Source: an uncultured Planctomycetales bacterium
GTDB taxonomy: Bacteria; Planctomycetota; Phycisphaerae; UBA1845; PWPN01
Assembly (NCBI GenBank): GCA_964617875.1
Contig: CAZUAI010000006.1
Coordinates: 23,102-87,101 of the forward strand
DNA length: 64,000 bases
Reading direction: 5' to 3'
Under the pieces are notes generated by a model, which saw only the letters and a program-made list of their open reading frames with translations, ran no database searches and was not told the DNA's origin. Positions 25,131 to 42,649 of this stretch are shown one piece after another. The position numbers and the translations under genes were made by a program. Position 1 is the stretch's first letter, and each line of letters opens with the position of its first letter.

Positions 25131-26343
25131 CTCGTCCTCCTGCCAGATACAGCATGAAGCCTGCTCCGGCGATCATCAGAACCAAGGCGTACATGACGCC
25201 GAACTTGATGCCGAAGACCGTCCACAGCCAGCCCACCAGGATGCTGCTGATCAGATCGCCCATGCCGGTCACCACGGCCAGCGCCCCGAACCCGCTGCCC
25301 CGGATGCTTGCGGGCAGGAGTTCGGCCGCGACGGCGTCCTCGACGGCCTCATACAGGCCGACGCCGGTGCCGCCGAGCGCGAACATGAGCGCCAGGCCGA
25401 TGTAGCTGTCGACGCCCGCCATCATGCAGACGGCCGCCAGGGCCGCGGCCAGATAACCGGCCACGAGAAGCATCCGCTTGTTCGTGCGATCCGCCATCCA
25501 TCCGCCGAGGTACGACCACGAGGCGTACAGCACGTTGTGCAGCGTGTAACCGGCCACGGAGAGGGTGGCGGCTTCGGCGGGTCCGATCCTGGGGGAAAGA
25601 ACCGTCACCGTATACAGGATGTAGAAGGTGTCGGCAAAATCGCCCAGGCCGAACAGGCCGACGGCGCCGAGGAACTCCTTGAATCGTGAGCCGAAGCCAC
25701 CGAAGCTCTTGAGGAAAGGGGTGCTGACCGGCGTGCGGTCGGTCCGCTCGCGGACGAGGAATGCGATCGCGAGGACCGCCACGATCGCCGGGAAGACGGA
25801 AAGCAGGATTACGCTGCGATGAGTGAGCCCCGCTCGCAAGAGGAACAGGACGGCCACCGGCGCCGCGATGGCACCGGTCGTATCCATCGCCCGCTCCAGC
25901 CCGAAGGCCCGGCCGTAGGTGGCCGGCGTCACGGCGTCGGCGAGCAACGCCTTTCGCGCCGGGGTGCGCAGGCCGCGTGAGACCCACGCCAGGACCCGGC
26001 CGCCCAGCACCACGAACCAGTTGCCTGCCAGGGCGATCACCACCGGGGAGAACGCCATGAAGCCGTAACCGCCGGCACAGAGGACCTTCCGGCGGCGGAG
26101 CCGATCCGCCAGCCAGCCGCCGTAGAGTTTCGCGAGGCTCGAGAAGCCGTCGGCGAAGCCCTCGATCGTCCCCAGGGCCCCGGCGGCAGCGCCCATGGAG
26201 GCCAGGAAGGCCGGCAGCGTGGACGTCACAGCCTCATGGCTCATGTCGCTGAACAGCGACGCAAGGCCGATGCCCACGACAGTCCGATTCAGCCAATGTA
26301 TGCCGGAACCGCGCGCCGTCCTGTCAGCGGCTGGATGACTCAT
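25108..26343 (-). CDS. MFS transporter
   Basis: ATG 26343-26341 overlaps the upstream stop (ATGA). 12 TM helices and an MFS motif-A-like GWLADRLRRRK. Confidence 0.8.
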   Translation of the reverse strand: MSHPAADRTARGSGIHWLNRTVVGIGLASLFSDMSHEAVTSTLPAFLASMGAAAGALGTIEGFADGFSSLAKLYGGWLADRLRRRKVLCAGGYGFMAFSPVVIALAGNWFVVLGGRVLAWVSRGLRTPARKALLADAVTPATYGRAFGLERAMDTTGAIAAPVAVLFLLRAGLTHRSVILLSVFPAIVAVLAIAFLVRERTDRTPVSTPFLKSFGGFGSRFKEFLGAVGLFGLGDFADTFYILYTVTVLSPRIGPAEAATLSVAGYTLHNVLYASWSYLGGWMADRTNKRMLLVAGYLAAALAAVCMMAGVDSYIGLALMFALGGTGVGLYEAVEDAVAAELLPASIRGSGFGALAVVTGMGDLISSILVGWLWTVFGIKFGVMYALVLMIAGAGFMLYLAGGRVDRANHD

Positions 26344-27614
26344 TTGCGTTGTATTGGATCGGGTCGCGGACATGAGGGCAAGGCGGCCTCCGCTTCCTCC
26401 ACGCGCAGCCATCCCGCGTGCAGGCACCACGCCATCGTCAGCCCCATGACAAACCCAAGGGCCACGTTGTTCAACGCCAGGCAGGCGGCGGCGGTCAGCA
26501 GCATGGCGAACGCATCGGTCCGGCGGGTCTGATCGCGACACACGAGCGAAAGCTCCATGCCGCTGAATGCCAGCATGACCCCGAGAATGCTGGCGGGGAA
26601 GGCACTGCACAGGGTCATGAGCGATGCGCCGACGAGTATGGCAAGGGTGATCTTCACGGCGCCAAGGAACAGGATTGCACCGTTGGTTCGTGCTCCAAAC
26701 CGATACTGTCCGGCCAGTCCGCCGGCTCCGTGGCACATCGGCATGCCGCCAAACCAGCAGGCCACGAGATTCATGATGCCCACGGAAACGGCGACCTTGC
26801 GCGGCGCGGCCTGTCGTCCCGGGAACAGGTCCGCCGACAAGGCGGTTACCGCGATGACCGAGTTCAACGTCGTGAGGGGAATCTGCGGCAGGGCGACCTT
26901 CGGAAAGGCCGCGACGAAGTCCGCCCGGGCCGGCGGTTGCCAACCCGGCCATGTGAAACCGATGCCGAGCGACCCCAACACCTCCGGATGTGTCCATATC
27001 GCGACGGCCAGGCCCGCCGCAAACAGGAGAAGCGCCGCCGGGATCGTTCGCGAGAAGAAGAGCAGGAGGACCAGCAGCGCGGCCAGCAGGCCCGTCAGGC
27101 AGCTATCACCCGCGAACCACGTGCCGGTGCCGGCGACCATCTGGATGCCCTTGATCATCAGCGACAGGCCCAGCGCGAGCTGCAAGCCGCGGACTACGCT
27201 GCGGGGCACGACCCGGTTCAGCCAGTCGATCAGCCCGGTCAGCCCGAGCAGCAGCACCACCAGGCTGACTGTCGCGCCGGCGGCCAGGATCTGCGGCACG
27301 GTCAGCCCCTGGGTGATCGCCACGGTTGCGATGGCCTTCATGGGCTGCACGGCCATCGGGATGCTGAAGGTCAGGCCGGTGACGACGTTAAACAACCCGG
27401 AGAAGAACAACGCCGAGGCGAAGTTGAGCCCGTTCTGCGCCGCCATGCCGACAAGCAGCGGCAGGAACGTGCCCAGGTCGCCGAGGCTGCCGGCAATCTC
27501 ATGCCGGTCGATTCGCGCGCACCCCAACGGCTGGAGAAACCGCGGCCATCCGGGCCGCGCCGTCTCAATCGCCGCGCGGGCCTCTACCGCACTGGACAAG
27601 AAGGCTGCCGCCAT
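26340..27614 (-). CDS. MOT1/SulP-related putative sulfate/molybdate-type anion transporter
   Basis: LGDLGTFLPLLVGMAAQNGLNFASALFFSGLFNVVTGLTFSIPMAVQPMKAIA is typical of the molybdate-transporter (MFS_MOT1) family. Polytopic membrane protein. First ATG at 27614. Confidence 0.7.
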   Translation of the reverse strand: MAAAFLSSAVEARAAIETARPGWPRFLQPLGCARIDRHEIAGSLGDLGTFLPLLVGMAAQNGLNFASALFFSGLFNVVTGLTFSIPMAVQPMKAIATVAITQGLTVPQILAAGATVSLVVLLLGLTGLIDWLNRVVPRSVVRGLQLALGLSLMIKGIQMVAGTGTWFAGDSCLTGLLAALLVLLLFFSRTIPAALLLFAAGLAVAIWTHPEVLGSLGIGFTWPGWQPPARADFVAAFPKVALPQIPLTTLNSVIAVTALSADLFPGRQAAPRKVAVSVGIMNLVACWFGGMPMCHGAGGLAGQYRFGARTNGAILFLGAVKITLAILVGASLMTLCSAFPASILGVMLAFSGMELSLVCRDQTRRTDAFAMLLTAAACLALNNVALGFVMGLTMAWCLHAGWLRVEEAEAALPSCPRPDPIQRK

Positions 27615-27691
27615 GACACCGCAGCCAGTCCACGACAAGCCTGCTCAACGTCGCCGCAATCACGGCCGCTCCGGGGGCTTGTCCGTCCCCG

Positions 27692-28978
27692 TCAGGCCTT
27701 GCCGGCAAACGGATTTCCGAAAACGGCCGCCTTGCCCAGTTCCGCCTCGATCTCCAGCAGCCGGTTGTACTTGGCGATCCGCTCGCTGCGGCACGCGGAA
27801 CCGGTCTTGATCTGGCCGCCGCCCATCGCCACGGCGAAGTCGGCCATGAAGGCATCTTCGGTCTCGCCCGAGCGGTGCGACACGACGAAGCCCCAGCCGG
27901 CCTTGCGGCACATATCGATGGCCTCGATGGTCTCGGTCACCGTGCCGATCTGATTCAGCTTGATCAGCACGGCGTTGGTGGACTGTTCCTTGATGCCCCG
28001 CTCGATGAACTTCGTATTCGTGACGTACAGGTCGTCGCCGACGATCTGGATGCGCGAGCCCAGCGCGGCCGTGTGCTGTTTGAACCCGGCCCAGTCGTTC
28101 TCGGCCAGGCCGTCTTCGATCGAGACGATCGGGTACTTCTCCACCCAGCCCTTGTACAACGCCGTCATCTCGGCGCTGTTCTTCCTGCCCTGGCCCGACT
28201 TCGAAAGCTGGTAGGCCCCGTCCTCGAAGAAGGAGCTGGCCGCCGGGTCGAGCGCGATGGCCACGTCCTTGCCGGGTTTGTAGCCGGCGGCCTGGATGGC
28301 CTCCACGATTACCTCGCAGGCCTCGTCGTTGCTCTTGAGGTTGGGCGCGAACCCGCCCTCGTCGCCGACGCTTGTCGCGTAGCCTTTCTTGTGCAGGATG
28401 GACTTGAGGGCGTGGAAGGTCTCCGCGCCGTAGCGAAGGGCCTCGGCGAACGTCGGGGCGCCGACGGGCATGCACATGAACTCCTGGAAGTCCACGCTGT
28501 TGTCGGCGTGCTTGCCGCCGTTCAGGATGTTCATCATGGGCACCGGGATGCGGACCGCGCCCGTTCCGCCGAGGTAGGCGTAAAGGGGAAGATCCGCCGC
28601 CATCGCGGCCGCGCGGGCCACCGCCATGGACACGCCGAGGATGGCGTTCGCCCCCAGCTTGCCCTTGTTGGGCGTGCCGTCCAGTTCGATCATCAGGCGA
28701 TCGATCTGGGCCTGGCGGTTCGGAGCCATGCCCACGATCTTCGGGGCAATGAGGTCATTGACGTTGGCGACGGCCTTGAGCACGCCCTTGCCGCCGTAGC
28801 GCTTCTTGTCGCCGTCCCGCAGTTCGACGGCCTCGTTCTCGCCGGTGGAGGCGCCGGACGGGACACAGGCCGCGGCCGTGATCCCGTTGTCCAGGGTCAC
28901 CGAGACCCGCAACGTCGGATTGCCGCGAGAATCCAGAATCTCCAGGGCCCGTACCGATGCGATATTGCTGTTCATCAT
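27692..28978 (-). CDS. eno: enolase (phosphopyruvate hydratase)
   Basis: [25 protein letters not shown]..., SHRSGETED and [10 protein letters not shown] motifs. Strong AAGGAG SD lies 3-6 nt before the ATGATG. Confidence 0.95.
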
Positions 28979-29407
28979 TAACTCCTTTCTTGAATCATGA
29001 CGCATTGTCATTGTGCGTAAACCAACAGATGCCGCAAGAGCCGCCTTGCGGATCATCGGATTCGGATGAAGCCTGAGTCCGGCCAGACACCGCCGGGCGG
29101 CGGCGGTTCCGATCCGGCCCAGGGCGGCGATGGCCGCCTGCGCCACGAACACCGCCTGCATGTCCCGCGTGTCCCGGGTCCGTTCGACCAGTTCGATCAA
29201 CGGCGCGACGGCCCGGCGTTCCTTCCGCTGCCCCAGCAGGAGGGCGCATCGCTCGGGCGTGGTGGGCTCCGGATGGCGCAGCGAGACCATGAGCTTCTCC
29301 GGGTAGCTGAGCGAGCCCCAGTATTCCCTCAGGTTCAGGCCGCAGCGAGGGCAGCATTCGAGGTCCTCGGCAAAGTCGTCCCAGCAGCGGGGACAGAAGA
29401 ACCGCAT
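28979..29407 (-). CDS. zinc-ribbon + HEAT-repeat ORF with no stop codon before eno
   Basis: [26 protein letters not shown] (CxxC-N11-CxxC) followed by HEAT-like repeats ([31 protein letters not shown]). ATG 29407-29405 lies 1 nt after the upstream stop. The frame continues uninterrupted into eno. Confidence 0.6.
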
Positions 29408-29408
29408 C

Positions 29409-30119
29409 TCAGTCCATTCTCGCCCGTTGAAGCATCCGGGCCAGGTCCTCCCGAATCGGGGCCTCCACCGGCAACGCACCGATGGCCTCCAGGGCGGGGG
29501 TCCGGTCGTATTCCGCCCGCCGGCTCTGAACCGCGCCGTCCTCCCACAGCGCATACGGCGCCCGCGCATCACCATCCAGCGGCTGACCGAGCGAGCCGGG
29601 ATTGACGATCTGCAGGGTTCCGTGGCGGCGGATCAGCGGGAGGTGCGTGTGGCCCGCCACGAGTAGGTCGGCCAGAACCCTGCCGGCGACGTCGTCGAGG
29701 ATCGCATCGCATCCCTGGGGGGTCAGGCGGTAGTCGTACAGAGGGTCGATGGGCGTCGCATGCGTCACGGCGAACGGAACGCCGCCGATTTCGCATCGCA
29801 GGCTCAGCGGAAGCCGGCCCAGCCACGCCAGGTCGTCCGGGCCCAGCTGCGCGCGGGTCCAGTCCCGCATGGCCAGGGCCAGGGGCTGCTTGGCCGGGCT
29901 GGCCTTGGGATCGGCCAGGAAGGCGACGGCATGGTCATGGTTGCCGCGCACGGCGATCGCCTCGTGCTGCCGAAGCCACGCCACCGCAGCCCCGGGGGCC
30001 GGACCGTAGTTCACCGTGTCGCCGGCGCAGATGACGTGGTCGAACCGCCCGGCGTCGCGTTCCACGGCGGCGAGGGCCCAGGGGTTGGCATGGATATCAG
30101 AAAGCATCAGAATCCGCAT
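29409..30119 (-). CDS. metallophosphoesterase (YfcE/MJ0936-like)
   Basis: [29 protein letters not shown] and VAGHTH metal-binding motifs. The ORF-track start at 30188 is less likely. Confidence 0.8.
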
Positions 30120-30240
30120 CGCCCAAACCATCTCCGAACCCGTGACCCATGGCGTCATCGTCGCCGTCGGCCCCCGGCCGGGACGCATCGCGTCCGCAGT
30201 ATATCAAGGGGGACCGGGCGGCTGGGCATACCCGTACACG

Positions 30241-30271: not shown

Positions 30272-30318
30272 GCTTGCTGCCGCGCTCAGTCGGTGCGGAC
30301 CCCCACCCAGGACAGCGG

Positions 30319-30408
30319 GTAGGAGTCATCAGGCTCCCCGACGGGGAACCAATTCACGGCGGACTCCATCGCCCGCCGGATCTTAGCGTGAACGCTGTGG
30401 GGCCGCAA
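30319..30408 (-). promoter_or_regulatory. promoter + fluoride riboswitch (crcB motif), copy 1
   Basis: Minus strand reads TTGCGG (30408-30403), N17, TAAGAT (30385-30380), N6, then GGCGAUGGAGUCCGCC-GUGAAUUG-GUUCCCCgucgGGGGAGC-CUGAUGACUCCUAC (30373-30319). P1 is GGCG/CGCC, the pseudoknot is GGAGUC/GACUCC, with a P3 hairpin and the conserved CUGAUGA. Confidence 0.85.
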
Positions 30409-30630
30409 GGACGCCTTCAGGGCGAGACGGGGCGCCGCGAAGGCCGAGCGGACGCCCGCCTTCGGTTGCCGGGCAGGCTTGACTTTGGACGCGCCCGGCG
30501 TACCGTGCCCGGTTTGCCGAGGCCGGGCGGTTGTGCGGCGCGTGATGATCTGCACGCCCCGGTTCGATGGAGCCTGCTTGCGGAACGAGACGACAGCCCC
30601 GAGTCGTACTGATCCCGGGATCCTCGCGCC

Positions 30631-33258
30631 ATGCCGATTCTGCCCAGCATCATACTGCCCAAGAACCTGGTGGCCGCCCTGAAACGTCACTCGTCGGACA
30701 TCCGTGTTGCGCCGCTTCTGCTGGAAACGGCCTCCGTTGCGGCGCCTCTGGCTCTTGACAAGCTGGGGACAACAGCGAACGGGCTAAGCGAAGAAGCGGC
30801 TCAGGCGCGCCTGGAAGAGCACGGTCCGAATGTCGTTGCGCAGGAGCATCGGCACGGCAAGCTCGTCCTCCTGGGCAAGGCACTGATCAATCCCCTGGTG
30901 ATCCTGCTGCTCATTCTGGCCGCGGTGTCGTTCCTCACCGGCGATAACCGCGCGGGAACCGTCATGTCGTTGATGGTCGTCCTCGGCGTGGTGCTGCGAT
31001 TCGTTCAGGAATCGCGGGCCGATACCGCCGCGGCCAGACTGAAGTCCATGATCAGCGTAACCGCAACGGTCGTCCGCGAGGGGCGGACGCGAGAGATTCC
31101 GCTGGCCGATCTGGTGCCGGGCGATGTGGTCAGGCTTGCCGCCGGGGACATGATCCCGGCCGATCTTCGGCTCATTTCCGCCAAGGATCTGTTTATCATA
31201 CAGGCAAGCCTGACCGGCGAGTCGCTTCCCATTGAGAAGTTCGAGGTGACGGAATCGAACGGAAAACCAGCTCTTGAACTCCGGAATCTTTGCTTCCTGG
31301 GCACCAGTGTGGAGAGCGGAACGGCCACCGGGGTAGTCGTGGCCACCGGCTTGCAGACCTACCTGGGAACCATGGCCAGAGCCTTGGCCGGCGAGCAGGC
31401 ACAAACCAGCTTCGACAAGGGGGTCAGTCGATTCACGTGGCTCATGATCCGCTTCATCGCCGTGATGGTGCCGCTGGTGTTTGTTATCAACGGCCTCACC
31501 AAGCATGACTGGCACGAAGCATTCTTCTTTGCGGTGGCGGTCGCGGTAGGCATGACGCCCGAGATGCTGCCGATGATCGTGACCGTCTGCCTGTCGAAGG
31601 GCGCTCTGGCCATGTCCCGTCGCAAGGTCATCGTCAAGCGGCTCAACTCCATCCAGAATCTTGGTGCGATGGACGTGCTCTGCACCGACAAGACCGGCAC
31701 GCTCACCATGGACCACGTGATTCTGGAGAAACATTGCGACGTCTTTCGGCGGGAGGATGATGGCGTCCTGATCCTGGCGTATCTCAACAGCCACTTCCAG
31801 ACCGGCCTCAAGAATGTGCTGGACCGAGCCATCCTGGACCATCGGGAAGTCCACGACATGGTCTCCATCGCTGACCACCTGAAAGTGGACGAGATCCCGT
31901 TCGATTTCTCGCGCAAGCTGATGTCCGTCGTCGTGCAGTTGCCGGAAGGAGGCCGTCGGCTCATCTGCAAGGGCGCGCCCGAAGTCGTCTTCCAGAGATG
32001 CAGCCAGTTTGAGGTTAAGGACCGGACGTACCCCATGCGGCAGGTCTACATTGACGATCTTCGCGAAGAGTACGACGAACTCAGCGCCGATGGCTTCCGT
32101 GTGCTGGCCATTGCTCACAAGGATCTGGAGCCGAAGGCCGCCTATTCCCGAGAGGATGAGTACGACCTGACGTTGAATGGCTACGTGGCCTTTCTTGATC
32201 CTCCGAAGGATTCCGCCGGGCCCGCGATCGAGGCGCTTGGCAAGCACGGCGTCGCCGTCAAGGTTCTCACGGGAGACAACGATCTGGTCAGCCGAAAGAT
32301 CTGTCATGAGGTCGGCATCCCGAGCGAGGAGGTATTGCTTGGCCCGCAAGTCGAGGCCATGTCCGATGCCGAGCTGGCGCATGCCGCGGAGCACACGTCC
32401 CTGTTTGCCCGCCTTTCTCCGGCCCACAAACAGCGGATTATCCGTGCGCTGCAGGGGAACGGACACGTGGTCGGTTTTCTGGGCGACGGAATCAATGACT
32501 CGCCCGCCCTCCGCACCGCCGATGTGGGAATCTCCGTCGATACCGCCGTCGATATCGCCAAGGAAGCCGCCGACGCCATCCTGCTCGAAAAGAGCCTCAT
32601 GGTGCTGGAGGAAGGCGTCCTCGAAGGACGCAAGGTCTTCGCCAACATCCTCAAGTACATCCGCATGGGAGCCAGCTCGAACTTCGGCAACATGTTCAGC
32701 GTGCTGGGGGCGAGCGTCTTTCTGCCGTTCGTGCCAATGGCCCCGATCCAGATCCTTACCAATAACCTGCTGTATGACTTCTCGCAGGTTCCCATTCCGA
32801 CGGACAACGTGGACCCCGAACAGATTGCCAAGCCCCGACCATGGTCGATGAATGAGATTACTCGGTTCATCCTCTTCATTGGCCCGTGCAGTTCGATTTT
32901 CGATTACACGACCTATTTCATCATGCTTTACGTCTTCCGTTGCTGGAGCCCCGACCGTGCGTCGTTGTTCCAAACCGGCTGGTTCGTGGAATCCCTTATG
33001 ACGCAGACGCTCATCATTCACATCATCCGGACCAACCGGATCCCGTTCCTGCAGAGCCGCGCCAGCCTGCCTCTCTCGATTACTACGCTGTTGATCATGG
33101 GTATCGGGATGTGGCTGCCGTTTTCACCTGTTGCATCTTCACTGGGCTTTACGCCACTGCCCGGTCTGTACTGGCCGCTGCTCTTCCTGACGTTGCTCTG
33201 CTACGGTTTGCTCACGCAGGCCGCCAAGACCTGGCTTCTGCGTAAGGCGTGGATCTGA
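30631..33258 (+). CDS. mgtA: magnesium-importing P-type ATPase
   Basis: 875 aa with DKTGTLT phosphorylation site, TGES, GDGINDSPAL and 10 TM helices. The N-terminus LSEEAAQARLEEHGPN is typical of MgtA/MgtB. Confidence 0.9.
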   Translation: MPILPSIILPKNLVAALKRHSSDIRVAPLLLETASVAAPLALDKLGTTANGLSEEAAQARLEEHGPNVVAQEHRHGKLVLLGKALINPLVILLLILAAVSFLTGDNRAGTVMSLMVVLGVVLRFVQESRADTAAARLKSMISVTATVVREGRTREIPLADLVPGDVVRLAAGDMIPADLRLISAKDLFIIQASLTGESLPIEKFEVTESNGKPALELRNLCFLGTSVESGTATGVVVATGLQTYLGTMARALAGEQAQTSFDKGVSRFTWLMIRFIAVMVPLVFVINGLTKHDWHEAFFFAVAVAVGMTPEMLPMIVTVCLSKGALAMSRRKVIVKRLNSIQNLGAMDVLCTDKTGTLTMDHVILEKHCDVFRREDDGVLILAYLNSHFQTGLKNVLDRAILDHREVHDMVSIADHLKVDEIPFDFSRKLMSVVVQLPEGGRRLICKGAPEVVFQRCSQFEVKDRTYPMRQVYIDDLREEYDELSADGFRVLAIAHKDLEPKAAYSREDEYDLTLNGYVAFLDPPKDSAGPAIEALGKHGVAVKVLTGDNDLVSRKICHEVGIPSEEVLLGPQVEAMSDAELAHAAEHTSLFARLSPAHKQRIIRALQGNGHVVGFLGDGINDSPALRTADVGISVDTAVDIAKEAADAILLEKSLMVLEEGVLEGRKVFANILKYIRMGASSNFGNMFSVLGASVFLPFVPMAPIQILTNNLLYDFSQVPIPTDNVDPEQIAKPRPWSMNEITRFILFIGPCSSIFDYTTYFIMLYVFRCWSPDRASLFQTGWFVESLMTQTLIIHIIRTNRIPFLQSRASLPLSITTLLIMGIGMWLPFSPVASSLGFTPLPGLYWPLLFLTLLCYGLLTQAAKTWLLRKAWI

Positions 33259-33317
33259 AATGAAGCGGCCGGCGATGAATGCCGTATGACCGCGAGCGGG
33301 GCGGCATCACCATAGTG

Positions 33318-33432
33318 TTGCGGATCCCGACCAGATCACATAGAATCGGGTTGGCGATGGGGTTCGCCAGCGTCCCGACCCGCCGTGGCTCGGACCAACC
33401 GCCTGCCCGACGACAGGCTGATAACCCCTGCT
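33318..33432 (+). promoter_or_regulatory. promoter + fluoride riboswitch variant, copy 2
   Basis: TTGCGG (33318-33323), N17, TAGAAT (33341-33346), N6, then GGCGAUGGGGUUCGCC-[28-nt inserted hairpin GUCCCGA...UCGGAC]-AACCG-CCUGcccgacgaCAGG-CUGAUAACCCCUGC (33353-33432). The pseudoknot pair GGGGUU/AACCCC covaries relative to the other three copies. Confidence 0.7.
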
Positions 33433-33562
33433 GAACTGCGTGCTACGTTCCGGCAGGGTATCAGCCGCTCAATCTCAACTCTGTCGAACGACGACGCAGC
33501 CAGAAGGATCGCTCCGGCCGTTCTGCTTCGCGCTCGGGACGGAGCCTTCGGAGAGCGAGCGG

Positions 33563-35677
33563 ATGAACGAACATCATCAACGGTGTATCGCCACCACACT
33601 GCGTCATATCGACGGCGTGTTCGCCGAGATCGAGGGGATTCTGGCCGCCATCGGCACGGGTTCGCCGCTGTCCCAGTACGCCCTGGACCTGGAGCCGATG
33701 CAGCGTGGGGTCGTCGAGGACCACCTGCACCGGATTCGGGAGGAGATGGTGGAGGCGATGAAACGGCTCGGCATTCCGCTGGACGGGCGTCGGACCAGCG
33801 CCTGCTGGTCCATCCGCAATCGCCTGCTCGGGGCGTCGATCGCGATCGCCGAGATGGAGCCGCCTCATCTTCGGGGGTACGGGGCACTGGATGCGCACGA
33901 CAAGGCCGAGATCACGCGGGTCTGTGCGGAAATGGAACGGCTGATCGGCCGGGTCGATTCGTATCTGGCCCGCGTGCACGGCGGCGACCTGGCGCAACGA
34001 ATCGCGCATCTGGAAGGTACGCCGGTGGATCGCGACTTGCTCACCACCCTGGAGCAGATCATCGGCAGGCACCATCTGATCGAGCTGCGGCCCGCGCTCG
34101 ACGTGATCCTCCATCGCCTGGAATCACCCCAGTTCGAGATCGCCTTTTTCGGTCGCGTCAGCTCCGGGAAATCCTCGCTGCTCAACCACATCCTCGGCGA
34201 AAGCGTCCTGCCCGTGGGCATTACCCCGGTGACCGCGGTGCCGACCCGGCTGCGACGCGGGGAGCGGCCGGAGATGGTGGTTCACTTCGAGATCTCGTCG
34301 CCCGCCCGCCTGCCCATCGATCAGGTCGCCGAATTCGTGACGGAAGAAGGCAATCCGCGAAACCGTCGCCGGGTGAAGTGGGTTGAGGTGACGGTCTCCA
34401 CGGCGCAGTGCTCCGAGGGCGTCGTGTTCGTGGACACTCCCGGCGTCGGATCGCTGGCCACCGTCGGCGCGGCCCAGACCATGGCGTACCTGCCGCGATG
34501 CGATCTCGGAGTCCTGTTGCTCGACGCCGGTTCGACCCTGCACCAGGAAGACCTCCGGATCCTGCAGGGTTTCGAGGAAGCGGCCATTCCGGCGATGGTC
34601 CTGCTCAGCAAGTGCGACCTGCTCCGCGCGGATGACCGGCAACGCATGATTCACTACGTCGAACAGCAGGTTCACGAGGCCTTGGGGCTTTCGATCGTCG
34701 TGGCGCCGGTGAGTACCGTCGGCCCGGATGCGCATCTGGCCCACGAATGGTTCGAGGCGCATGTCCGTCCGATCATGCGGAGGCACCGGGAGCTGACGGC
34801 CGCTTCGATTCGGCGAAAGGTCGGAGCGCTCCAGGAAACGCTTATCGCGACGTTGAGCAGTATGCTCCGCCGGAGAAGCGGCCGCTCCGCACCCGTAGCG
34901 CGTGACAGCGCCGAGGCGGCCCGGCTTCTGGAGGAGGCCGCGACGCGCATCGCCCGGTTCACGGAATGGGCCGCGGATTTCGATGCCCGCCGGACTTCGG
35001 AGGATGTGGCGCGGCTGATCGAAGACGCCGCCGTGCAGATGGTGCCGGGGCGGGGCGGCGGCCAGACCCCGCCGGTCGGTCTTCGCGACGTTCTGCTGAC
35101 GCGGCTGGCGACCGAGGCGTCGTCGTTCCGGGACGGCGTCATCGGGTTGCAGGCCGACCTGACGAACACGTTGATTCAGCTGGGCGAAAAGGTCGGCAGC
35201 ATCGGAGGCCCTGAGGCCCGGAGGCTGGAGATGTCCCTGACCCCGCTTCCGCCGGCCCGCGAGGAGAATCTGGCCGCGATTCCCGACATTCGTCCGTCGA
35301 AGTTGCTCATGTCGTGGCGATGGCTTGCGCGGGCAAGGCTGCGTGCGGGCCTGCGTCGTCACTGCCGTTGGCCGATCGAGACGGCGCTTGGCGATCATCG
35401 TCGCGAGTTGCGAACGTGGTTGAAAACCAACCTGGACCGCCTCGTGGAGGCCTACGAAACCCATGCCGGTGTGTACCGGGAGGAACTGCGCCGCGCCACC
35501 GAGGCGTCGGGAGACGGCGGACGCGCCGAAGATTCCTCACTGGAAGAGGATCTGGACAGGTTGCAACGGCTCGCGGGACGGTTCCGCGAGCCGCAAAGCC
35601 CGTCCACCGCGGGCGAGCCGGCAGAGTCGGCCCCGACCGGACAGGGCGACGGGACGGTTCCGGTGCAGGCCTGTTGA
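33563..35677 (+). CDS. dynamin-like GTPase (DLP-C)
   Basis: ATG 33563 (MNEHHQRCIA). G1 FFGRVSSGKSSLLN, G3 VFVDTPGVGS, G4 LLSKCDLL, followed by long helical stalk-like regions. Confidence 0.8.
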   Translation: MNEHHQRCIATTLRHIDGVFAEIEGILAAIGTGSPLSQYALDLEPMQRGVVEDHLHRIREEMVEAMKRLGIPLDGRRTSACWSIRNRLLGASIAIAEMEPPHLRGYGALDAHDKAEITRVCAEMERLIGRVDSYLARVHGGDLAQRIAHLEGTPVDRDLLTTLEQIIGRHHLIELRPALDVILHRLESPQFEIAFFGRVSSGKSSLLNHILGESVLPVGITPVTAVPTRLRRGERPEMVVHFEISSPARLPIDQVAEFVTEEGNPRNRRRVKWVEVTVSTAQCSEGVVFVDTPGVGSLATVGAAQTMAYLPRCDLGVLLLDAGSTLHQEDLRILQGFEEAAIPAMVLLSKCDLLRADDRQRMIHYVEQQVHEALGLSIVVAPVSTVGPDAHLAHEWFEAHVRPIMRRHRELTAASIRRKVGALQETLIATLSSMLRRRSGRSAPVARDSAEAARLLEEAATRIARFTEWAADFDARRTSEDVARLIEDAAVQMVPGRGGGQTPPVGLRDVLLTRLATEASSFRDGVIGLQADLTNTLIQLGEKVGSIGGPEARRLEMSLTPLPPAREENLAAIPDIRPSKLLMSWRWLARARLRAGLRRHCRWPIETALGDHRRELRTWLKTNLDRLVEAYETHAGVYREELRRATEASGDGGRAEDSSLEEDLDRLQRLAGRFREPQSPSTAGEPAESAPTGQGDGTVPVQAC

Positions 35678-35689
35678 ATCGGCAGATCG

Positions 35690-37480
35690 TCAACCGGGCA
35701 GAAAGGCTGCCTCCGGGCGCCAGGGGAAACACAGACTCCGTTGGCCGACAAGCTGCGTCAATGCGCGTCGATGGGCCTCGGTCTCGTCGCGGTTTTCGAG
35801 GCTGCGCCGCAGGGCGTCGTGCTTTATCGCGAAGCTCTGCATGTCCTCGGCCAGCGCGCCGAGGTGTCGTGCGGCTTCCCGCAGCAGGAACCGGCGTGTT
35901 TCGCCGTCCGGCACCAAGACGATGAGAGGTGCCAGATGCCGCAGGCAGACGCCGGAAGACCGGGCATAAGCCTCGCGGCCTCCTGCATCGGCCAACAGGG
36001 TCGCCAGCCGCTGCGTGCCGTCGCGCTCGTGGTCCGCCAGCAGCCGGCAGACACGGCAGGCGGCCTGCCGGCCGGTGAGTTCGTCGAACGCGGCCTCCGG
36101 CCCGTTCTCGTTTGCCGCGAAAGCCGACAGGGCGGTCGTCCGTTTCTCCAGCAACGCGAAGTAGCCCACGCTCAGGCCCCGGGGCGAGGAGATGCCGGCG
36201 AGCTGCCAGGTGTGCAACGGGCAGAAGCCGCCCTCTTCGGCGAAGGACTGCTGAGCGGCTTCATCGGTCGCGAGAGCGTGCTGCCATCGTCGGAGGAAAT
36301 CGAAGGCCGCTTCGGTCAGGTGGTTGCAGACGGGGCAGGTTCCCGCACGGAGCGCGGCCACGATCTCCGATTCTTCGATGGGTTCGGCCGGTTTCGTCCG
36401 CGGCGTCGGCGATGAACACGGCGGACCTCCCCGCGCCGCGGCCGGAGGCGTCGGCGTCGCGTCAACCTGACCCGCGAGAATCCCCTCGCGCAGCCGTTGA
36501 ATGGCGGTTCGCCGCTCGACGGCTTCCGGGTGCTGCTGGCCTGCGATAAGTCCCTCGGCACGATCCAGGATCGCGGCCAGGAACGTCGTGGTCCGCTGGT
36601 CGGTCAGGAAATCCGCCAGCGCCGCCTCCAGGGCCGGAAGCCCGCTCTGTGCCAATCCGTGTGCGTCCCGCGCGGCTCGGGCCGCCAGCGCCGCCCGCGA
36701 CGACAGGGGAAACAGGGGCGGCCGCGCCGCGCCCATCCGACGGGAGAGATTGTCGCCGATGAACCGCAGGGCAGCCTCCCGCTCCGCGTTCGCCAGCAGG
36801 TCCATCTTGTTGACGACGAAGAAGACCTTGCGGACATGCGCGCGGAGGCGGTCCAGGAACTCCAGTTCCGTCGCGGCCAGCGGACCGTCGGCGCTGGTCA
36901 CGAACAGAACCGCATCGCACTGGGGGACGAAGGCATACGTCGTTGCGGTGTTCGCTTCGATGGCCGAGCCGATGCCGGGCGTATCCACGAACTCCAATCC
37001 ACGCCGCAGGAAGGGCGACGGGAACTCCACGTATACCGCCTTGATTCGCTTCCGGTTGGCCGGATTGCCCGTCTCCGTCACGTACTCGGGCAGCGCCGAA
37101 ATCGGGGCTTCGTCATCGAACGACCGGTTCTGACGGGAAATGACCAGCCGTTCCTCCGGACCGAACCGCAGGATGGTAATGGCGGACGTGAGCGGCAGGA
37201 TGCCCGTCGGCAGAAGCTCCCGGCCGACGATGGCGTTCATGAGCGAACTCTTGCCGCGTTTGAACTGGCCCACAACGGCCAGGGTGAAGCGGTCTTCGGC
37301 CAGCTTGACCATCAATTCATGGCAGGCGGCGACCCGGTCATCCCCGCCGTGCCGGCCGAGCCAATGGTCCAGGGCGCGAACCTGCCGTGCCACCGCCTGC
37401 CTGGCCCGCACGTAGGCCCTCAGACGCGACGAATCGGACTCGAGCGGGGACACCGCCGGACTCGTGGGCGACGGCATCAT
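35690..37480 (-). CDS. dynamin-like GTPase (DLP-B) with C-terminal double CxxC...CxxH module
   Basis: ATGA overlap with DLP-A. G1 VVGQFKRGKSSLMN, G3 FVDTPGIGS, G4 VVNKMDLL. The C-terminal 217 aa carry CPVC...CPLH and CRVC...CLRH. Confidence 0.8.
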   Translation of the reverse strand: MMPSPTSPAVSPLESDSSRLRAYVRARQAVARQVRALDHWLGRHGGDDRVAACHELMVKLAEDRFTLAVVGQFKRGKSSLMNAIVGRELLPTGILPLTSAITILRFGPEERLVISRQNRSFDDEAPISALPEYVTETGNPANRKRIKAVYVEFPSPFLRRGLEFVDTPGIGSAIEANTATTYAFVPQCDAVLFVTSADGPLAATELEFLDRLRAHVRKVFFVVNKMDLLANAEREAALRFIGDNLSRRMGAARPPLFPLSSRAALAARAARDAHGLAQSGLPALEAALADFLTDQRTTTFLAAILDRAEGLIAGQQHPEAVERRTAIQRLREGILAGQVDATPTPPAAARGGPPCSSPTPRTKPAEPIEESEIVAALRAGTCPVCNHLTEAAFDFLRRWQHALATDEAAQQSFAEEGGFCPLHTWQLAGISSPRGLSVGYFALLEKRTTALSAFAANENGPEAAFDELTGRQAACRVCRLLADHERDGTQRLATLLADAGGREAYARSSGVCLRHLAPLIVLVPDGETRRFLLREAARHLGALAEDMQSFAIKHDALRRSLENRDETEAHRRALTQLVGQRSLCFPWRPEAAFLPG

Positions 37481-39330
37481 CGCTGATCCTGTTCTCGGGC
37501 GGCCGTTGTCGCAAGACGCTCCTTGAGCCCCCGCAGGCCGGCGACCGCCGCCTCGAGCCGCGCGATTTCCGGGGCAACCGTCGCCGAGTCTTCCGTGCGA
37601 CGTCGTCGAGCGGCGCCAAGGGCCCGGCGAGTCGCTTCAATCGTCTGCCGAAGGCTGTCTTCCAGGGCGTCACGGAAGTCCTGGATGCTTGTCCTGAGAT
37701 TCTCCAGGGTACTCCATCGAAGATCTCCGATGTTGCGAGTCACGAGGTACTCCACCTGGTCCGCGAGTCGCCGCCGAATGCGGGAATGCCGCAAGCGCCG
37801 CGGAAGCACTCTGTCGATCCAGTCCGTGGGAATCGAGCCGGGTCCCTGAATCGCCCACTTGTGAACGCGCCAGCAGGGCTGTTCCACCTTCGCCAGGGCG
37901 ATCTCGCGGTGCTGCGGCTCATACGGAACGTCGAAGACCTTCGCAATGGAGGCGTGAACCGCGGCGACCAGTTCGGCCGCCCGGCGCTGATGGGGCCGCA
38001 GGGCCTCGTGCAGTTCGCGCTCGCAAAGCTGATGGGCGGCACCGAACTCCCGCTCGAAAAAACCGGGGATGGCCGCGGCAATGGCCTCGCGGGCGGTCTC
38101 CTCCGACCACCGGTTCCCGTCCCGAATCTCGCATTCGCGGAGGACTTTCGTGAAGAACTCGATGCTTCCGGGCAGCATCGCATCGGCGCGCATCTTGACG
38201 GCTTCCGCCAGACGCTGTTCGTCCCTGGCAAGGCGGTCGAGGGCCACGATGCGCCGTTCCTCGATTTCGGTCAGGCTGTTCTCGAAGCGACCGATGCGGT
38301 CGTCGAGGTCGGCCAGCGGCATCTGCAGGGACCGCAGAGTCAGTTCCAGGCGATGCTGGACATCGGCGAGAATGTCCCCCGCCTGGCGGGCCACCGCGCG
38401 GCTGAGCACGTCTTTCTTCTCGGTGAGCAGGAAGCTGACGATCTGCTCTTCGATCGCCGCCACGCCGCTCCGTTCCCAGGCGGCGTCATCCTGCCCCTGG
38501 CGAGCCGCCAGGCCCTGGCGGGCCGAGGCGCAGAAGATCGGCGGCGGCGAGGTGAACCCGACGTGCTCGCAGAGCGCCCGCTGGAGAAACCGTACGGCCT
38601 CGTCCCGCTCGGCCGCGTCGAGGTAATCCACCTTGTTCAGGATGAAGAACAGGCGGGCCAGTTTGCGGCGCGCGAGCTTGAGAAACTCCACCTCGACCTC
38701 GGTGATCGGCGGATCCGCGGACACCACGAACATCGCCGCATCGCACTGCGGGAGAAAGTTGACGGTCGCCTCGGTGTTGTGGCGAAAGGTCGAACCGATG
38801 CCGGGCGTATCGATCAGCGAGAGGCCCCGACGCAGCACCGGCGCGGGATACGCGGCTTCGATCAACCGGACCCCCAGGTGGTTGCGCGGGTTCGCGCTTT
38901 CGGCGACAAAACGCGCGAGGAAACCCGCCAGGGCCGCGGCGTCCGGCCCGAGGAGCCGCTCTTCCGGCTTCCCGTTTTCGAATACCACCCGGGCCGCCGG
39001 CTGCTCGCCGCCGTGCAGAAACGTCGGGATGGACGTGACCGGCACAACGGCGGCAGGCAGGACGGGGGCTCCCAGCAACGCATTGATCAACGTGCTCTTG
39101 CCGCGTTTGAACTGGCCGAGCACGGCCAGATGACAGCGTTCCTCCCGCAGACGTTCGTGCAGAGCGAGAATGCGATGCCGGTCGGCCCCGAATTCCTCGC
39201 CCATCGCCCCCACCTGACCGGCGGCTTCCTGCAGGAGGGTTGGCAGTTGGACGGACTCCGCGACATGCCGGGCCGTCGTCTCCGGCCGGTTGTCCGAATC
39301 CGCGTCGGCATGGAGGACGAAATCAGTCAT
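37477..39330 (-). CDS. dynamin-like GTPase (DLP-A)
   Basis: G1 VLGQFKRGKSTLIN, G3 LIDTPGIGS, G4 ILNKVDYL and a helical C-terminal half. The start overlaps the upstream TPR-like ORF by 8 nt. Confidence 0.8.
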   Translation of the reverse strand: MTDFVLHADADSDNRPETTARHVAESVQLPTLLQEAAGQVGAMGEEFGADRHRILALHERLREERCHLAVLGQFKRGKSTLINALLGAPVLPAAVVPVTSIPTFLHGGEQPAARVVFENGKPEERLLGPDAAALAGFLARFVAESANPRNHLGVRLIEAAYPAPVLRRGLSLIDTPGIGSTFRHNTEATVNFLPQCDAAMFVVSADPPITEVEVEFLKLARRKLARLFFILNKVDYLDAAERDEAVRFLQRALCEHVGFTSPPPIFCASARQGLAARQGQDDAAWERSGVAAIEEQIVSFLLTEKKDVLSRAVARQAGDILADVQHRLELTLRSLQMPLADLDDRIGRFENSLTEIEERRIVALDRLARDEQRLAEAVKMRADAMLPGSIEFFTKVLRECEIRDGNRWSEETAREAIAAAIPGFFEREFGAAHQLCERELHEALRPHQRRAAELVAAVHASIAKVFDVPYEPQHREIALAKVEQPCWRVHKWAIQGPGSIPTDWIDRVLPRRLRHSRIRRRLADQVEYLVTRNIGDLRWSTLENLRTSIQDFRDALEDSLRQTIEATRRALGAARRRRTEDSATVAPEIARLEAAVAGLRGLKERLATTAAREQDQR

Positions 39331-39751
39331 GGCACTCCGAATCTGTCGGGAAATCGGCGGGGACGGAATCCGCTTGCGTCATGCCGGCCGAATCTGCCTC
39401 CGGCTCAGGGGGCTCCTGCCCCGGCCAGAAGTGGCGCCACATGCGGCGAACTGTGGCATCGTCCCGGCGTTCGCGAAAGAGCTGGGCCAGCAGGGCGCGG
39501 GCTTCGTCCATGCGGTTCAGATGGGTCAACGCAACGGCCCAGTGAACCTTGAACGACGGCTCAAAGGGGTTTACGTATACGGCGCGTCGGAATTGGGACT
39601 CGGCCAGTTCGAAGGCCTCGCGCTGGAGGAAATAGCAACCCATATCGTCGCGGTCGTAGCCCAGATAGTGGCTGGGCCGCAGGACTTCCTCGCGGATGAT
39701 CTGCGGGTCGCGAGTGCGGTGTCGCCTTTTCGGCTCGTCCGGGAGGCTCAT
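39323..39751 (-). CDS. small TPR-like protein (142 aa), first gene of the DLP operon
   Basis: ATG 39751 (MSLPDEPKRRH) with GGAGG 13 nt upstream. One or two TPR-like units (AESQFRRAVYVNPFEPSFKVHWAVALTHLNRMDEARALL) and an acidic tail. Confidence 0.55.
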   Translation of the reverse strand: MSLPDEPKRRHRTRDPQIIREEVLRPSHYLGYDRDDMGCYFLQREAFELAESQFRRAVYVNPFEPSFKVHWAVALTHLNRMDEARALLAQLFRERRDDATVRRMWRHFWPGQEPPEPEADSAGMTQADSVPADFPTDSECHD

Positions 39752-39790
39752 GGTCCGCCATACCTCCGTGCCGCAGGCCGACGGCCTGCC

Positions 39791-39830
39791 AACAGAAAAC
39801 CCCACACAGGAATCGTCCTGGCGGGGTTCC
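39791..39830 (-). terminator. intrinsic-terminator-like element of the riboswitch 3 expression platform
   Basis: Minus strand reads GGAACCCCGCCAGG-acgauu-CCUGUGUGGGGUU followed by UUCUGUU, lying between the aptamer and the SD of the TPR-like ORF. Confidence 0.5.
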
Positions 39831-39864
39831 CGTTACACGATGGCCCCTACCCAGGTCGATTCGG

Positions 39865-39948
39865 GCAGGAGTCATCAGGTCGGCAGGACCGCTTAACGGC
39901 GGACTCCATCGCCATAGATATTTTAGGCCCGGCGGGCGTCGTGTGCAA
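39865..39948 (-). promoter_or_regulatory. promoter + fluoride riboswitch (crcB motif), copy 3
   Basis: Minus strand reads TTGCAC (39948-39943), N17, TAAAAT (39925-39920), N6, then GGCGAUGGAGUCCGCC-GUUAAGCG-GUCcugccGAC-CUGAUGACUCCUGC (39913-39865). Confidence 0.9.
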
Positions 39949-39963
39949 GGGCCGTCTTTTGTC

Positions 39964-40314
39964 TCAGGCCTTTGCGCCCACGCCGTTCGCCCGGTACTTG
40001 ATCACGCGGACTTTTTCCAGCGTGATGAGTCCTTCCACCACCATCTCATCGATGTAGGGCAGGAGCAGATTGACCTTCTCCTCGCTGTCCACGATCTCGA
40101 TGATAAAGGGGAGGTCTTCCGACAGCCGCAGGATCTTCGTCGTGTGCAGCCGGCTGTGGGCGCCGAAGCCCATCGGGCCGCGAAGCACCGTCGCCCCGGC
40201 CAGATGAAGCTCGCGGGCCTTCATCACGATGGCCTCGTACAGCGGCTTGCCGTGCCACTTGTCGTTCTCGCCGATGAAGATGCGCAGCAACTGCGCTTCG
40301 CCTTCCAGTTTCAT
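39964..40314 (-). CDS. DUF190 (PII-like) protein commonly linked to crcB
   Basis: MKLEGEAQLLRIFIGENDKWHGKPLYEAIVMKARELHLAGATVLRGPMGFG matches the DUF190/UPF0166 pattern. Starts 3 nt after the USP stop. Confidence 0.8.
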   Translation of the reverse strand: MKLEGEAQLLRIFIGENDKWHGKPLYEAIVMKARELHLAGATVLRGPMGFGAHSRLHTTKILRLSEDLPFIIEIVDSEEKVNLLLPYIDEMVVEGLITLEKVRVIKYRANGVGAKA

Positions 40315-40317
40315 TCA

Positions 40318-40731
40318 TCACCTCACCACCGTCACGGTGCACGGCGCGTAACTCAGGACCCGCTTGGAGACCGAACCCAGCAGCCAGCGCTGGAACCGGC
40401 TCTTGCCTCGATGGCCCATCACGATCATGTCGGCCTGGCGCTCGGCGGCCTGATGGACGATCTGATCGGCCGGATGGCCTACCACGACGGCCGTTTCGAG
40501 AGGAATCCCTGCCGCCTTCGCGGCCTCGCGAAAGACGACGAAGTCCTTCTCGAAGTGCTCCGTCGCCGCATCCAGCAGGGCGGGTGTCTCCACCGACGTG
40601 GGCGGTTCCGACGGCTGGGCTACCGACACGACGGTCACGCTGGCACCGAATGCCCTGGCCAGTTCCAGCGCGAACTGGAATGCCCGTTTCGCCGACTCGG
40701 ATCCGTCATGAGCTGCAAGAATGGTTTTCAT
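40318..40731 (-). CDS. universal stress protein (UspA family)
   Basis: MKTILAAHDGSESAKRAF..., ADMIVMGHRGKSRFQRWLLGSVSKRVLSYAPCTVTVV. Confidence 0.85.
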   Translation of the reverse strand: MKTILAAHDGSESAKRAFQFALELARAFGASVTVVSVAQPSEPPTSVETPALLDAATEHFEKDFVVFREAAKAAGIPLETAVVVGHPADQIVHQAAERQADMIVMGHRGKSRFQRWLLGSVSKRVLSYAPCTVTVVR

Positions 40732-40740
40732 GGTTACCTC

Positions 40741-41994
40741 TCACGATTCAGAAGGGACGGGCTCACCATCCGCCGTCGCGGTTGCCACAGCCGCCTGGCC
40801 GCCGGCCGATGCCGTGCCCTGTCCTGTGACTCCAGTGCGTTTCGACAGCAGGTCCCGCGGAATGAAGAAGGCATTGGCGATCAGCGTCGGGATCACGGCG
40901 CTGGCCACCACCGCCGCAACGAGATACGAGTACTGGCTCTGCGTGATGACATTGTGCGTCAGCCCGAAGAGCGCGGAGATCGTCCCGAACGTCAGCCCCG
41001 TGGACATGAGCAGCGTGGTGTACACGGCCTGGCGGTACTCGTAGCGAAACGCCCTGGTGGTGGGGTACACGCCCACGCACTTGCTCACCACCTTGGCGAC
41101 CAGCAGGATCAGGAAGGTCGCCGGGGCCGCAAGCAGGGCCGGAACCGAAACGAAGGAACCGGCCCGGATGAAGTAGAACGGCGTCAGCATTCCGAACGTC
41201 AGCGTGCGCAGCCGGCGAACCAGGACGTGATCCTTGCCCACGGTGCCAGCGAGGACCATGCCGATCATGTACGCGGGCAAGACCGCCTCGCTGTCGGCCC
41301 ACGCCGCCAGGGCTCCCATGCTGAACAGCAGCAGCAGCAGGTACTTCGCCTCCAGTTCCGAGGGGCGGTTGCCGTATCGTTTGAAGAACCACGGCGTCAG
41401 AAAGGGGATGACGGCGAAGACCACGACGCTCGATCCGACGAACACGCCCGTGCGCATCGTGAACGGCGAGAAGATCAGACCGAGAGCAATCACCGTGCCG
41501 AGGTCGTTGATGAAGCAGGCGGCCAAAACGGCCTTGCCGAAATCCGTCTTGTTGAAGCCCAGTTCGAGCATGACCGCATAGACGACGGCGACCGAGGTTG
41601 TGGACAGGGCCACCCCCGCCAGCCAGCTCGCCATCGGGGTCCAGTGCAGCACATAGTACGCCACGGCCGCGCACCCCAGGAACGGCGCGAAAAAAGCGAC
41701 CAGGCCGACGACGGTGGCCTCCTTCCACTTGGCGCGGAACACCGTCGGGTCCAACTCGGCCCCGGCCAGAAACGTCAGGACGATGGCACCCGTCCCCGAC
41801 AGGAACTTGATCCAGGGTTCGTGTGCTCCCAGCGCCGCCGTTCCGGCGAGAGCACCGATGATCAGTTGGGCGACCGTGCCCACCACGATCTCGGAGAGGG
41901 CCGTCGCCACGCGAAGCCAGATCGAAAGGAGCGTGGCGAGCAGGGCGAGTCCCAGCCACAACGCCGCCGTAAGCCAGACGTCGGTCATGTGCAT
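40741..41994 (-). CDS. cation:proton antiporter (CPA1/CPA2, Na+/H+ exchanger family)
   Basis: 417 aa, about 12 TM helices, motifs LSEIVVGTV, FLAGAELD and NDLGTVIALG. Confidence 0.85.
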   Translation of the reverse strand: MHMTDVWLTAALWLGLALLATLLSIWLRVATALSEIVVGTVAQLIIGALAGTAALGAHEPWIKFLSGTGAIVLTFLAGAELDPTVFRAKWKEATVVGLVAFFAPFLGCAAVAYYVLHWTPMASWLAGVALSTTSVAVVYAVMLELGFNKTDFGKAVLAACFINDLGTVIALGLIFSPFTMRTGVFVGSSVVVFAVIPFLTPWFFKRYGNRPSELEAKYLLLLLFSMGALAAWADSEAVLPAYMIGMVLAGTVGKDHVLVRRLRTLTFGMLTPFYFIRAGSFVSVPALLAAPATFLILLVAKVVSKCVGVYPTTRAFRYEYRQAVYTTLLMSTGLTFGTISALFGLTHNVITQSQYSYLVAAVVASAVIPTLIANAFFIPRDLLSKRTGVTGQGTASAGGQAAVATATADGEPVPSES

Positions 41995-42064
41995 CGACCT
42001 CCTGCCGCAGCCTTCCCCTCCGCCTGACCGCCCTCGACGGCCTTCCGGTCCGCATTCGTGGCCG

Positions 42065-42451: not shown

Positions 42452-42479
42452 CCAACGCTTCCTCGCATGCCGGTCCGCC

Positions 42480-42520
42480 AAACAAGAAACCCTACGCAGG
42501 CATTCGGCCCGGCAGGGTTC
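42480..42520 (-). terminator. intrinsic-terminator-like element of the riboswitch 4 expression platform
   Basis: Minus strand reads GAACCCUGC-CGGGC-cgaau-GCCUG-CGU-AGGGUUUC followed by UUGUUU. Its 5' arm is complementary to GGGCAGGGU located just after the aptamer. Confidence 0.5.
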
Positions 42521-42565
42521 ATCTACAAGGTCTCCGTGGCGCGGACCCTGCCCAGGTCGATGCGG

Positions 42566-42649
42566 GCAGGAGTCATCAGGTCAGCGCGACCGGTTAAGGG
42601 CGGACTCCATCGCCGCCGCTATACTATCCTCTGGCACGACAAGTTGCAA
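42566..42649 (-). promoter_or_regulatory. promoter + fluoride riboswitch (crcB motif), copy 4, heading crcB
   Basis: Minus strand reads TTGCAA (42649-42644), N17, TAGTAT (42626-42621), N6, then GGCGAUGGAGUCCGCC-CUUAACCG-GUCgcgcuGAC-CUGAUGACUCCUGC (42614-42566). Confidence 0.92.

Follow-up and report, generated by a model that had tools for sequence, protein, structure and literature searches.

In a 64,000-nucleotide stretch of DNA from an uncultured Planctomycetales bacterium (GenBank assembly GCA_964617875.1, contig CAZUAI010000006.1, positions 23,102 to 87,101 of the forward strand; the whole stretch is called the window below), the minus-strand gene for a protein with a zinc ribbon and HEAT-like repeats (Zn-ribbon/HEAT) runs without a stop codon into the gene for enolase, in an operon behind a fluoride riboswitch. 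The locus is best described, at a probability of about two in three, as a tolerated stop-less variant of a conserved, tight and translationally coupled HEAT-enolase gene pair that would give both a read-through fusion and free enolase, with the HEAT protein acting on or with the enolase. This last role is suggested because the fusion has been tolerated repeatedly and the two genes are tightly paired. The Zn-ribbon/HEAT protein would then be a dedicated companion of the fluoride-regulon enolase, which is better supported than a special enolase isoform.

Reading frame and junction in the window

The frame opened by ATG 29407 (protein start MRFFCPRCW) was stop-free until 27692-27694 and comprised 571 codons, of which 143 encode the Zn-ribbon/HEAT domain with its linker and the following 428 encode enolase. 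The full open reading frame (ORF) call, 27692..29575, gave 627 amino acids from ATG 29575, with the first 56 codons overlapping the preceding gene. An AT-rich stretch, GGTTTACGCACAATGACAATGCGTCATGATTCAAGAAAGGAGTTA, leads in frame into ATGATG (28978/28975). The features of this ORF, including the Shine–Dalgarno sequence (SD) of enolase and the guanine-plus-cytosine (GC) content of the junction, are as follows.

29030..29407, minus strand: Zn-ribbon and three PBS-type HEAT-like repeats (HEAT_2 35.1 bits; fusion residues 1 to about 126)
28979..29029, minus strand: linker/junction, AT-rich, translated in frame without a stop (GC 0.42)
28982-28987, minus strand: SD AAGGAG, within the junction
28979-28981, minus strand: TTA codon, aligned with the TAA stop of the related locus L039
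28976-28978 and 28973-28975, minus strand: twin enolase ATG codons
27692..28978, minus strand: enolase (Enolase_N E 9.1e-59, Enolase_C E 1.6e-122; 428 or 427 amino acids; stop 27692-27694)

The GC content of the junction compares with about 0.68 nearby. Both other frames contain stops within the junction, and six of its codons are one base away from a stop. The stop-free frame and the AT-rich junction carrying the enolase SD were thus as described in the initial annotation, which placed the enolase start at 28978. That ATG is present, but the second one (28975, giving 427 amino acids) is the more likely start because it has the usual 6 nt spacing from the SD that is seen in relatives. RNA folding of the junction was slightly poorer than that of shuffled sequences (z = +1.1) and was uninformative. 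Frameshifting or recoding was considered and rejected, the HEAT domain and enolase lying in one shared frame throughout.

Two Logan contigs, L123 (SRR12489245) and L124 (SRR12489246), were found by exact-protein look-up with Usp and the upstream 259-residue phosphoesterase. They match the window with 100% identity over 33425-28678 (L123) and 32700-28678 (L124), which takes in the junction and 100 codons of enolase, and in both the gene calls give a single ORF from the HEAT ATG into enolase. SRR12489245 and SRR12489246 are separate short-read runs that may be the source data of the window itself. Even in that case an assembler or polishing slip at the junction is ruled out, because both contigs match the window exactly across it. 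It is highly improbable that the AT-rich junction of the true genome contains a stop codon, or an indel of 1 nt that would end the HEAT frame at an out-of-frame stop such as TAATGATGA. The near-stop codons, the stops in both other frames and the TAA at the aligned codon of the closest relative (L039) would suit such an error, but the junction is reproduced in two further assemblies from separate runs, and the architecture recurs in six further loci that were assembled independently, one of which came from two samples. The stop codon that, according to the initial annotation, sequence correction might have brought to light did not appear in these two further assemblies. The two contigs break off within enolase at one and the same window position, 28678, probably because very high enolase conservation among community members breaks the assembly graph there. 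Exact-sequence look-ups of the 428-, 427- and 571-residue products and of a 236-residue phosphoesterase returned no database record.

HEAT-enolase junctions in related loci

An in-frame fusion was found at six other loci (L007, L056, L079, L117, L118 and L119/L120) and at a seventh that is 5'-truncated (L121). When a protein collection was queried with the 571-residue product, the fused proteins P0270, P0271, P0272 (= L079) and P0273 and the partial P0283 were returned, with identities of 70-73% and coverages of 93-99%; each carries HEAT_2 and the two enolase domains. These proteins surfaced only with the full 571-residue query, not with HEAT-only or profile queries. P0273 was assembled in two different JGI (Joint Genome Institute) samples. 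The comparison of orthologous loci proposed in the initial annotation, which had allowed for a stop codon in all relatives, therefore gave a TAA in L039 and none in the six other loci or in the truncated L121.

In most pairs the stop of the HEAT frame falls on the enolase ATG or no more than about 50 nt away from it. The junctions were grouped as follows.

HEAT frame ending in an ATGA that overlaps the enolase start: L011/L050, L013, L014, L047, L057/L060
HEAT frame ending inside enolase: L017/L055, L084
HEAT frame ending just upstream of enolase: L039, L093, L027, L042
HEAT frame stop-free and in frame with enolase: L007, L056, L079

The stop/start overlap typical of a coupled pair is therefore seen in relatives and not in the window, which has no upstream stop at all. 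Locus L039 has the gene order of the window and, among adjacent pairs, the most similar enolase (89%). It reads AAGGAG TAA CGC ATG where the window reads AAGGAG TTA ATG ATG, so that the window is one substitution away from a stop at the aligned codon.

The fusion is absent from the nearest relatives of the window, L039 and L001. The fused loci were scattered over a tree built from both genes of the pair in concatenation: the unfused L039 is the sister of the window, the unfused L084 groups with L056 and L118, and L079/L117 and L007/L119 are pairs of fused sisters. This scatter implies at least 4-5 independent fusion events. The fused loci L079 and L117 share 85% enolase and 58% HEAT identity, so at least one fused state has persisted through 15% enolase and 42% HEAT divergence. 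Taken as a whole, the fusion appears to be a real, heritable and tolerated variant that has arisen repeatedly.

The window, the six other fused loci that are complete and the partial L121 all have an SD-like element that precedes the enolase ATG by 5-8 nt.

Window: AAGGAG
L007: GGGAGG
L056: AAGGAG
L079: AAGGAGGAGG
L117: AAAGGAGG
L118: GGAAGGAG
L119: ATGGAGG
L121: AAGGAGG

In none of the fused loci has enolase lost its own ribosome-binding site (RBS) and start, the mark of an obligate fusion. The retention of SD and ATG in all of them points to continued selection for free enolase made from the internal start. Except for the residues encoded by the SD, the linkers of the fused loci are unrelated in sequence. 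The structure of the window fusion was predicted with AlphaFold2, as the initial annotation had suggested, and gave two confidently folded domains with a predicted template modelling score (pTM) of 0.70; residues 131-144 had a predicted local distance difference test score (pLDDT) below 50, and the linker between HEAT and enolase is predicted to be disordered or flexible.

These results bear on the proposal that the extended enolase has itself been selected, as a fluoride-protected, regulated or relocalized isoform, which is unlikely. Its recurrence in at least 4-5 lineages, its persistence across the divergence of the fused sisters L079 and L117, the intact HEAT domains of most fused copies and a HEAT-like repeat fold that would serve as a protein-binding scaffold are what such an isoform would lead one to expect. 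However, an unbiased scan of 14 lineages with adjacent genes found three fused and 11 unfused, a fused share that does not exceed the one third expected for a random relative frame; every fused locus still has the internal SD and ATG, the linker is neither conserved nor predicted to be ordered, and the enolase is canonical throughout. The protected or regulated isoform put forward in the initial annotation found no support in this comparison.

The HEAT domains were scored against a family hidden Markov model (HMM) built without the fused copies. The lowest fused copy was that of the window, at the 9th percentile (148 bits; family median 175), and the highest that of L117, at the 93rd; L007 reached the 70th percentile and L118 the 67th. 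Most fused loci lay between the 27th and 93rd percentiles, the normal family range. A systematic decay of fused copies was rejected on this spread. The window copy has a 6-residue insertion and the changes D34S, A42S and A54C at near-invariant positions, and retains all four cysteines and the HPE motif. Cys22 is lost in the fused loci L079 (CHFRG; L079:1179-1260) and L119 (CPYFG; L119:8001-8080). The unfused L027 (L027:5282-5360) has no recognizable ribbon. With zinc ligands lost in these three loci, the ribbon would be dispensable in some lineages.

It is quite improbable that the HEAT gene of the window is simply a decaying accessory gene, in which loss of the stop reflects drift or pseudogenization, only free enolase matters and the fusion product is noise. 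Such decay would be in keeping with the low score, the insertion and the three near-invariant changes in the window, with the zinc-binding cysteines lost in L079 and L119, and with an ATG 29407 that lacks an obvious SD while the strong enolase SD is kept. It is opposed by a frame open across all 143 codons, by the intact cysteines and HPE motif, by a confident AlphaFold2 fold of the HEAT domain (pLDDT 91.5) and by the other fused copies (L117, L007 and L118) that score above the family median.

Several points also weigh against the preferred reading, that of a tolerated stop-less variant of a tight pair. The missing stop is by itself statistically unremarkable, an in-frame stop being absent from 22% of composition-matched shuffles of the 57-nt junction as well. 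Most relatives keep separate genes, so the fusion is not needed for function, and the linker appears unconserved. The window HEAT domain is among the more divergent family members, and the cysteine losses in L079 and L119 hint at relaxed constraint in some fused copies, possibly including that of the window. No strong SD is visible at ATG 29407, and the amount of fusion made could accordingly be small. The open ORF and the intact SD and ATG allow both the fusion and free enolase, as the initial annotation had it, and free enolase would be expected together with some fusion protein. Finally, the AlphaFold2 model speaks to the folds of the domains rather than to docking of HEAT on enolase.

The Zn-ribbon/HEAT family and its enolase partner

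The zinc-ribbon pattern in the window consists of C5, C8, C19 and C22, that is CPRC-N10-CPRC; the motif and the HEAT-like repeats had been recognized in the initial annotation with a spacing of N11. The Pfam HEAT_2 match (cut-off 27.7 bits) covers residues 38-126 of the 571-residue ORF. The DZR match is sub-threshold (16.7 versus 27.3 bits), and the ribbon assignment rests on the pattern rather than on a curated model. In a family alignment of 119 sequences C5, C19, C22, H45 and R53 do not vary, conservation of C8 reaches at least 90% and the signature motif is HPEPxTPxRAAWxLG. The two conserved CxxC knuckles indicate a zinc ribbon with putative metal binding.

AlphaFold2 predicted the ribbon and three helical repeats for the HEAT domain, with a low-confidence tail from residue 131. 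A profile search of the PDB (Protein Data Bank) gave alphaRep proteins with E values down to 8.5e-75 (summed over many repeats) and MTH187 (1te4) at 1.7e-09, and the top Foldseek matches were again alphaRep and MTH187, with a template modelling (TM) score of about 0.55 and a root-mean-square deviation of about 2 Å. The closest solved sequences or folds are alphaRep binders, MTH187, CpcE and deoxyhypusine hydroxylase. Both searches thus returned generic repeat binders only, with no closer functional relative and no functional clue, and the predicted fold is that of a generic protein-binding scaffold. The Zn-ribbon/HEAT protein shares sequence and predicted fold with the PBS-lyase HEAT-like repeat proteins (HEAT_PBS, MTH187, CpcE/F, deoxyhypusine hydroxylase and alphaRep), but differs from them in its N-terminal four-cysteine ribbon, its three repeats only, its HPEPxTPxRAAW motif and its genomic association with fluoride riboswitches, enolase and dynamin-like GTPases.

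An initial protein search with the HEAT domain gave four standalone homologues of 130-169 residues with 51-55% identity. Pattern scans of genome and metagenome collections yielded 110 Zn-ribbon/HEAT loci, and about 120 related loci were gathered overall. A profile built from 40 sequences found 447 proteins at E ≤ 1e-10; the best 120 of the 447 are all standalone proteins of 122-222 residues. An exhaustive profile search of 1.84 billion representatives was swamped by giant multi-HEAT proteins and was uninformative on fusions.

Among the 86 loci with room for a downstream neighbour, enolase was the commonest identified neighbour of the Zn-ribbon/HEAT gene (18 loci), followed by dynamin-like GTPase (12), TPR protein (5) and phosphoesterase (4). 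The module is also fused in frame to a dynamin-like GTPase (763-800 residues, HEAT_2 plus Dynamin_N; L077:473-2872, L080:6001-8289 and L083:225-2513) and to a long region of additional HEAT repeats (488-489 residues; L101:187-1650 and L109:5556-7022). These further fusions fit an adaptor role for the Zn-ribbon/HEAT protein.

Residues 149-563 of the 571-residue ORF carry full-length enolase domains: PF03952 (Enolase_N) was matched over 1-131 of 131 positions and PF00113 (Enolase_C) over 3-287 of 296. Enolase residues 5-419 align to the solved enolase 1iyx with E 9e-169. The downstream part is by sequence a canonical member of the enolase family, and catalysis is predicted. The HEAT-adjacent enolases were compared using the window and L001, L007, L011, L013, L014, L017, L039, L056, L057, L079 and L084. 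They form a tight clade with 75-91% amino-acid identity across metagenome-assembled genomes labelled Deltaproteobacteria, Planctomycetota, Syntrophobacteraceae and Terriglobia. The other enolases of these loci share just 53-69% identity with this clade. The clade suggests a specialized fluoride-regulon enolase that may spread horizontally.

Fluoride regulon, proposed mechanism and significance

The remaining features of the operon and of the surrounding region are as follows.

30313..30382, minus strand: fluoride riboswitch aptamer, operon head (Rfam RF01734, 37.9 bits, gathering score 34, E 6.5e-07)
29409..30188, minus strand: calcineurin-like metallophosphoesterase (Pfam Metallophos_2 E 3.2e-23; 259 amino acids)
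26340..27638, minus strand: MOT1-type MFS transporter (Pfam MFS_MOT1 E 4.7e-60), downstream in the same operon
30631-33258, plus strand: P-type cation ATPase, between two riboswitches
33440-35677, plus strand: dynamin-like GTPase, fluoride island
35690-37480, minus strand: dynamin-like GTPase with a DUF6062-like tail, fluoride island
37477-39330, minus strand: dynamin-like GTPase, fluoride island

The order of the operon is phosphoesterase, Zn-ribbon/HEAT-enolase ORF, MOT1-type MFS transporter and a further MFS transporter. By its aptamer the operon is assigned to the fluoride-riboswitch regulon, in agreement with the initial annotation. From the riboswitch to the end of enolase the minus strand showed no site resembling an intrinsic terminator, and the terminator and promoter scan of the locus was uninformative. 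The exact 259-residue phosphoesterase product was called in two Logan assemblies; its true start may be ATG 30119 rather than 30188, because the Pfam match starts at residue 24. Its stop codon, TGA 29409-29411, lies 1 nt ahead of the Zn-ribbon/HEAT ATG.

The window contains a compact 'fluoride island' (30313-42623) with four Rfam fluoride riboswitches, at 30313-30382 (minus), 33344-33437 (plus), 39859-39922 (minus) and 42560-42623 (minus). The other three head dynamin-like GTPases, a TPR protein, a 166-residue unknown protein, a Na+/H+ exchanger, Usp and DUF190. Across the family, an Rfam fluoride riboswitch was present in 19 of 29 tested Zn-ribbon/HEAT loci, and an nhmmer model built from the Rfam hits detected one in 70 of 121 loci and in 48 of the 67 loci (72%) of at least 6 kb. 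The fused gene of L079 has group II intron pieces (RF00029 twice and RF02012; L079:27-939) immediately upstream of the riboswitch that heads it. At L119:1630-3908 a separate fluoride riboswitch precedes a membrane H+-pyrophosphatase gene, and a second one precedes dynamin-like GTPase, MFS, AAA_16 and HEAT-enolase genes. Literature searches brought up no paper that ties either the Zn-ribbon/HEAT protein or dynamin-like GTPases to the fluoride riboswitch.

The following mechanism is proposed for the tolerated variant. In the usual state the HEAT frame crosses the RBS of enolase and stops at or just past the enolase ATG; in the window the two frames coincide and there is no stop, TTA replacing the TAA of the closest syntenic relative. 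Initiation at ATG 29407 would probably occur by coupling to the preceding phosphoesterase gene, because this ATG follows the phosphoesterase stop by 1 nt and has no obvious SD. Ribosomes starting there would read through to give a 571-residue protein of about 62 kDa, in which the Zn-ribbon/HEAT domain is joined to enolase by a flexible linker, and those loading at AAGGAG-N6-ATG (28975) would give ordinary free enolase of about 46 kDa.

Single ORFs that yield two isoforms through an internal start are known from IF2 alpha/beta, ClpB 93/79 and CheA long/short. The in-frame internal SD and ATG of the window could likewise give a full-length and a shorter C-terminal product; the arrangement is family-wide in those systems, whereas the HEAT-enolase fusion is the minority state of a locus that normally has two genes. 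Rosetta-stone fusions arise from adjacent, translationally coupled genes. The HEAT-enolase loci resemble them in being separate proteins in most genomes and one ORF in some, in the scatter of fused cases over the tree and in an unfused state with an ATGA stop-start overlap, and differ in that the internal SD and ATG are kept and the downstream protein is probably still made alone.

Enolase is the classic intracellular target of fluoride, and on the accepted view the riboswitch does no more than let bacteria raise their enolase output. Enolase is often encoded in fluoride-riboswitch operons, and the extra enolase is thought to offset fluoride inhibition (PMC11139923, review). The enolase of the window, like those of the crcB-motif regulon, lies in an operon behind an RF01734 aptamer, but it is a member of a distinct clade, has a Zn-ribbon/HEAT gene as its partner and is fused in frame to that gene. 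From the recurrent fusion and the tight pairing of the genes we infer that the Zn-ribbon/HEAT protein and enolase interact during fluoride stress. A bolder and more doubtful idea, which we put forward tentatively, is that this protein of about 130 residues is a core component, so far undescribed, of the bacterial fluoride response and a direct binding partner of enolase. Its task might be to shield enolase from, or stabilize it against, inhibition by Mg-fluoride-phosphate; or it might tether the enzyme to the dynamin-like GTPases that share its riboswitch-controlled islands. If so, the recurrent fusions to enolase and to dynamin-like GTPase would be natural Rosetta-stone evidence for a complex.

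In annotation the HEAT gene of a fused locus goes unseen, since the gene call yields either one long 'enolase' or just the enolase. The analysis also highlights other uncharacterized members of the fluoride regulon, namely the dynamin-like GTPases, the TPR protein and DUF6062. The value of the locus lies less in a single missing stop codon than in the conserved association of HEAT and enolase (and dynamin-like GTPase). A specialized enolase clade that travels with a Zn-ribbon/HEAT protein would point to more than simple overproduction of enolase, and would make this protein a concrete candidate for an enolase accessory factor in fluoride tolerance.

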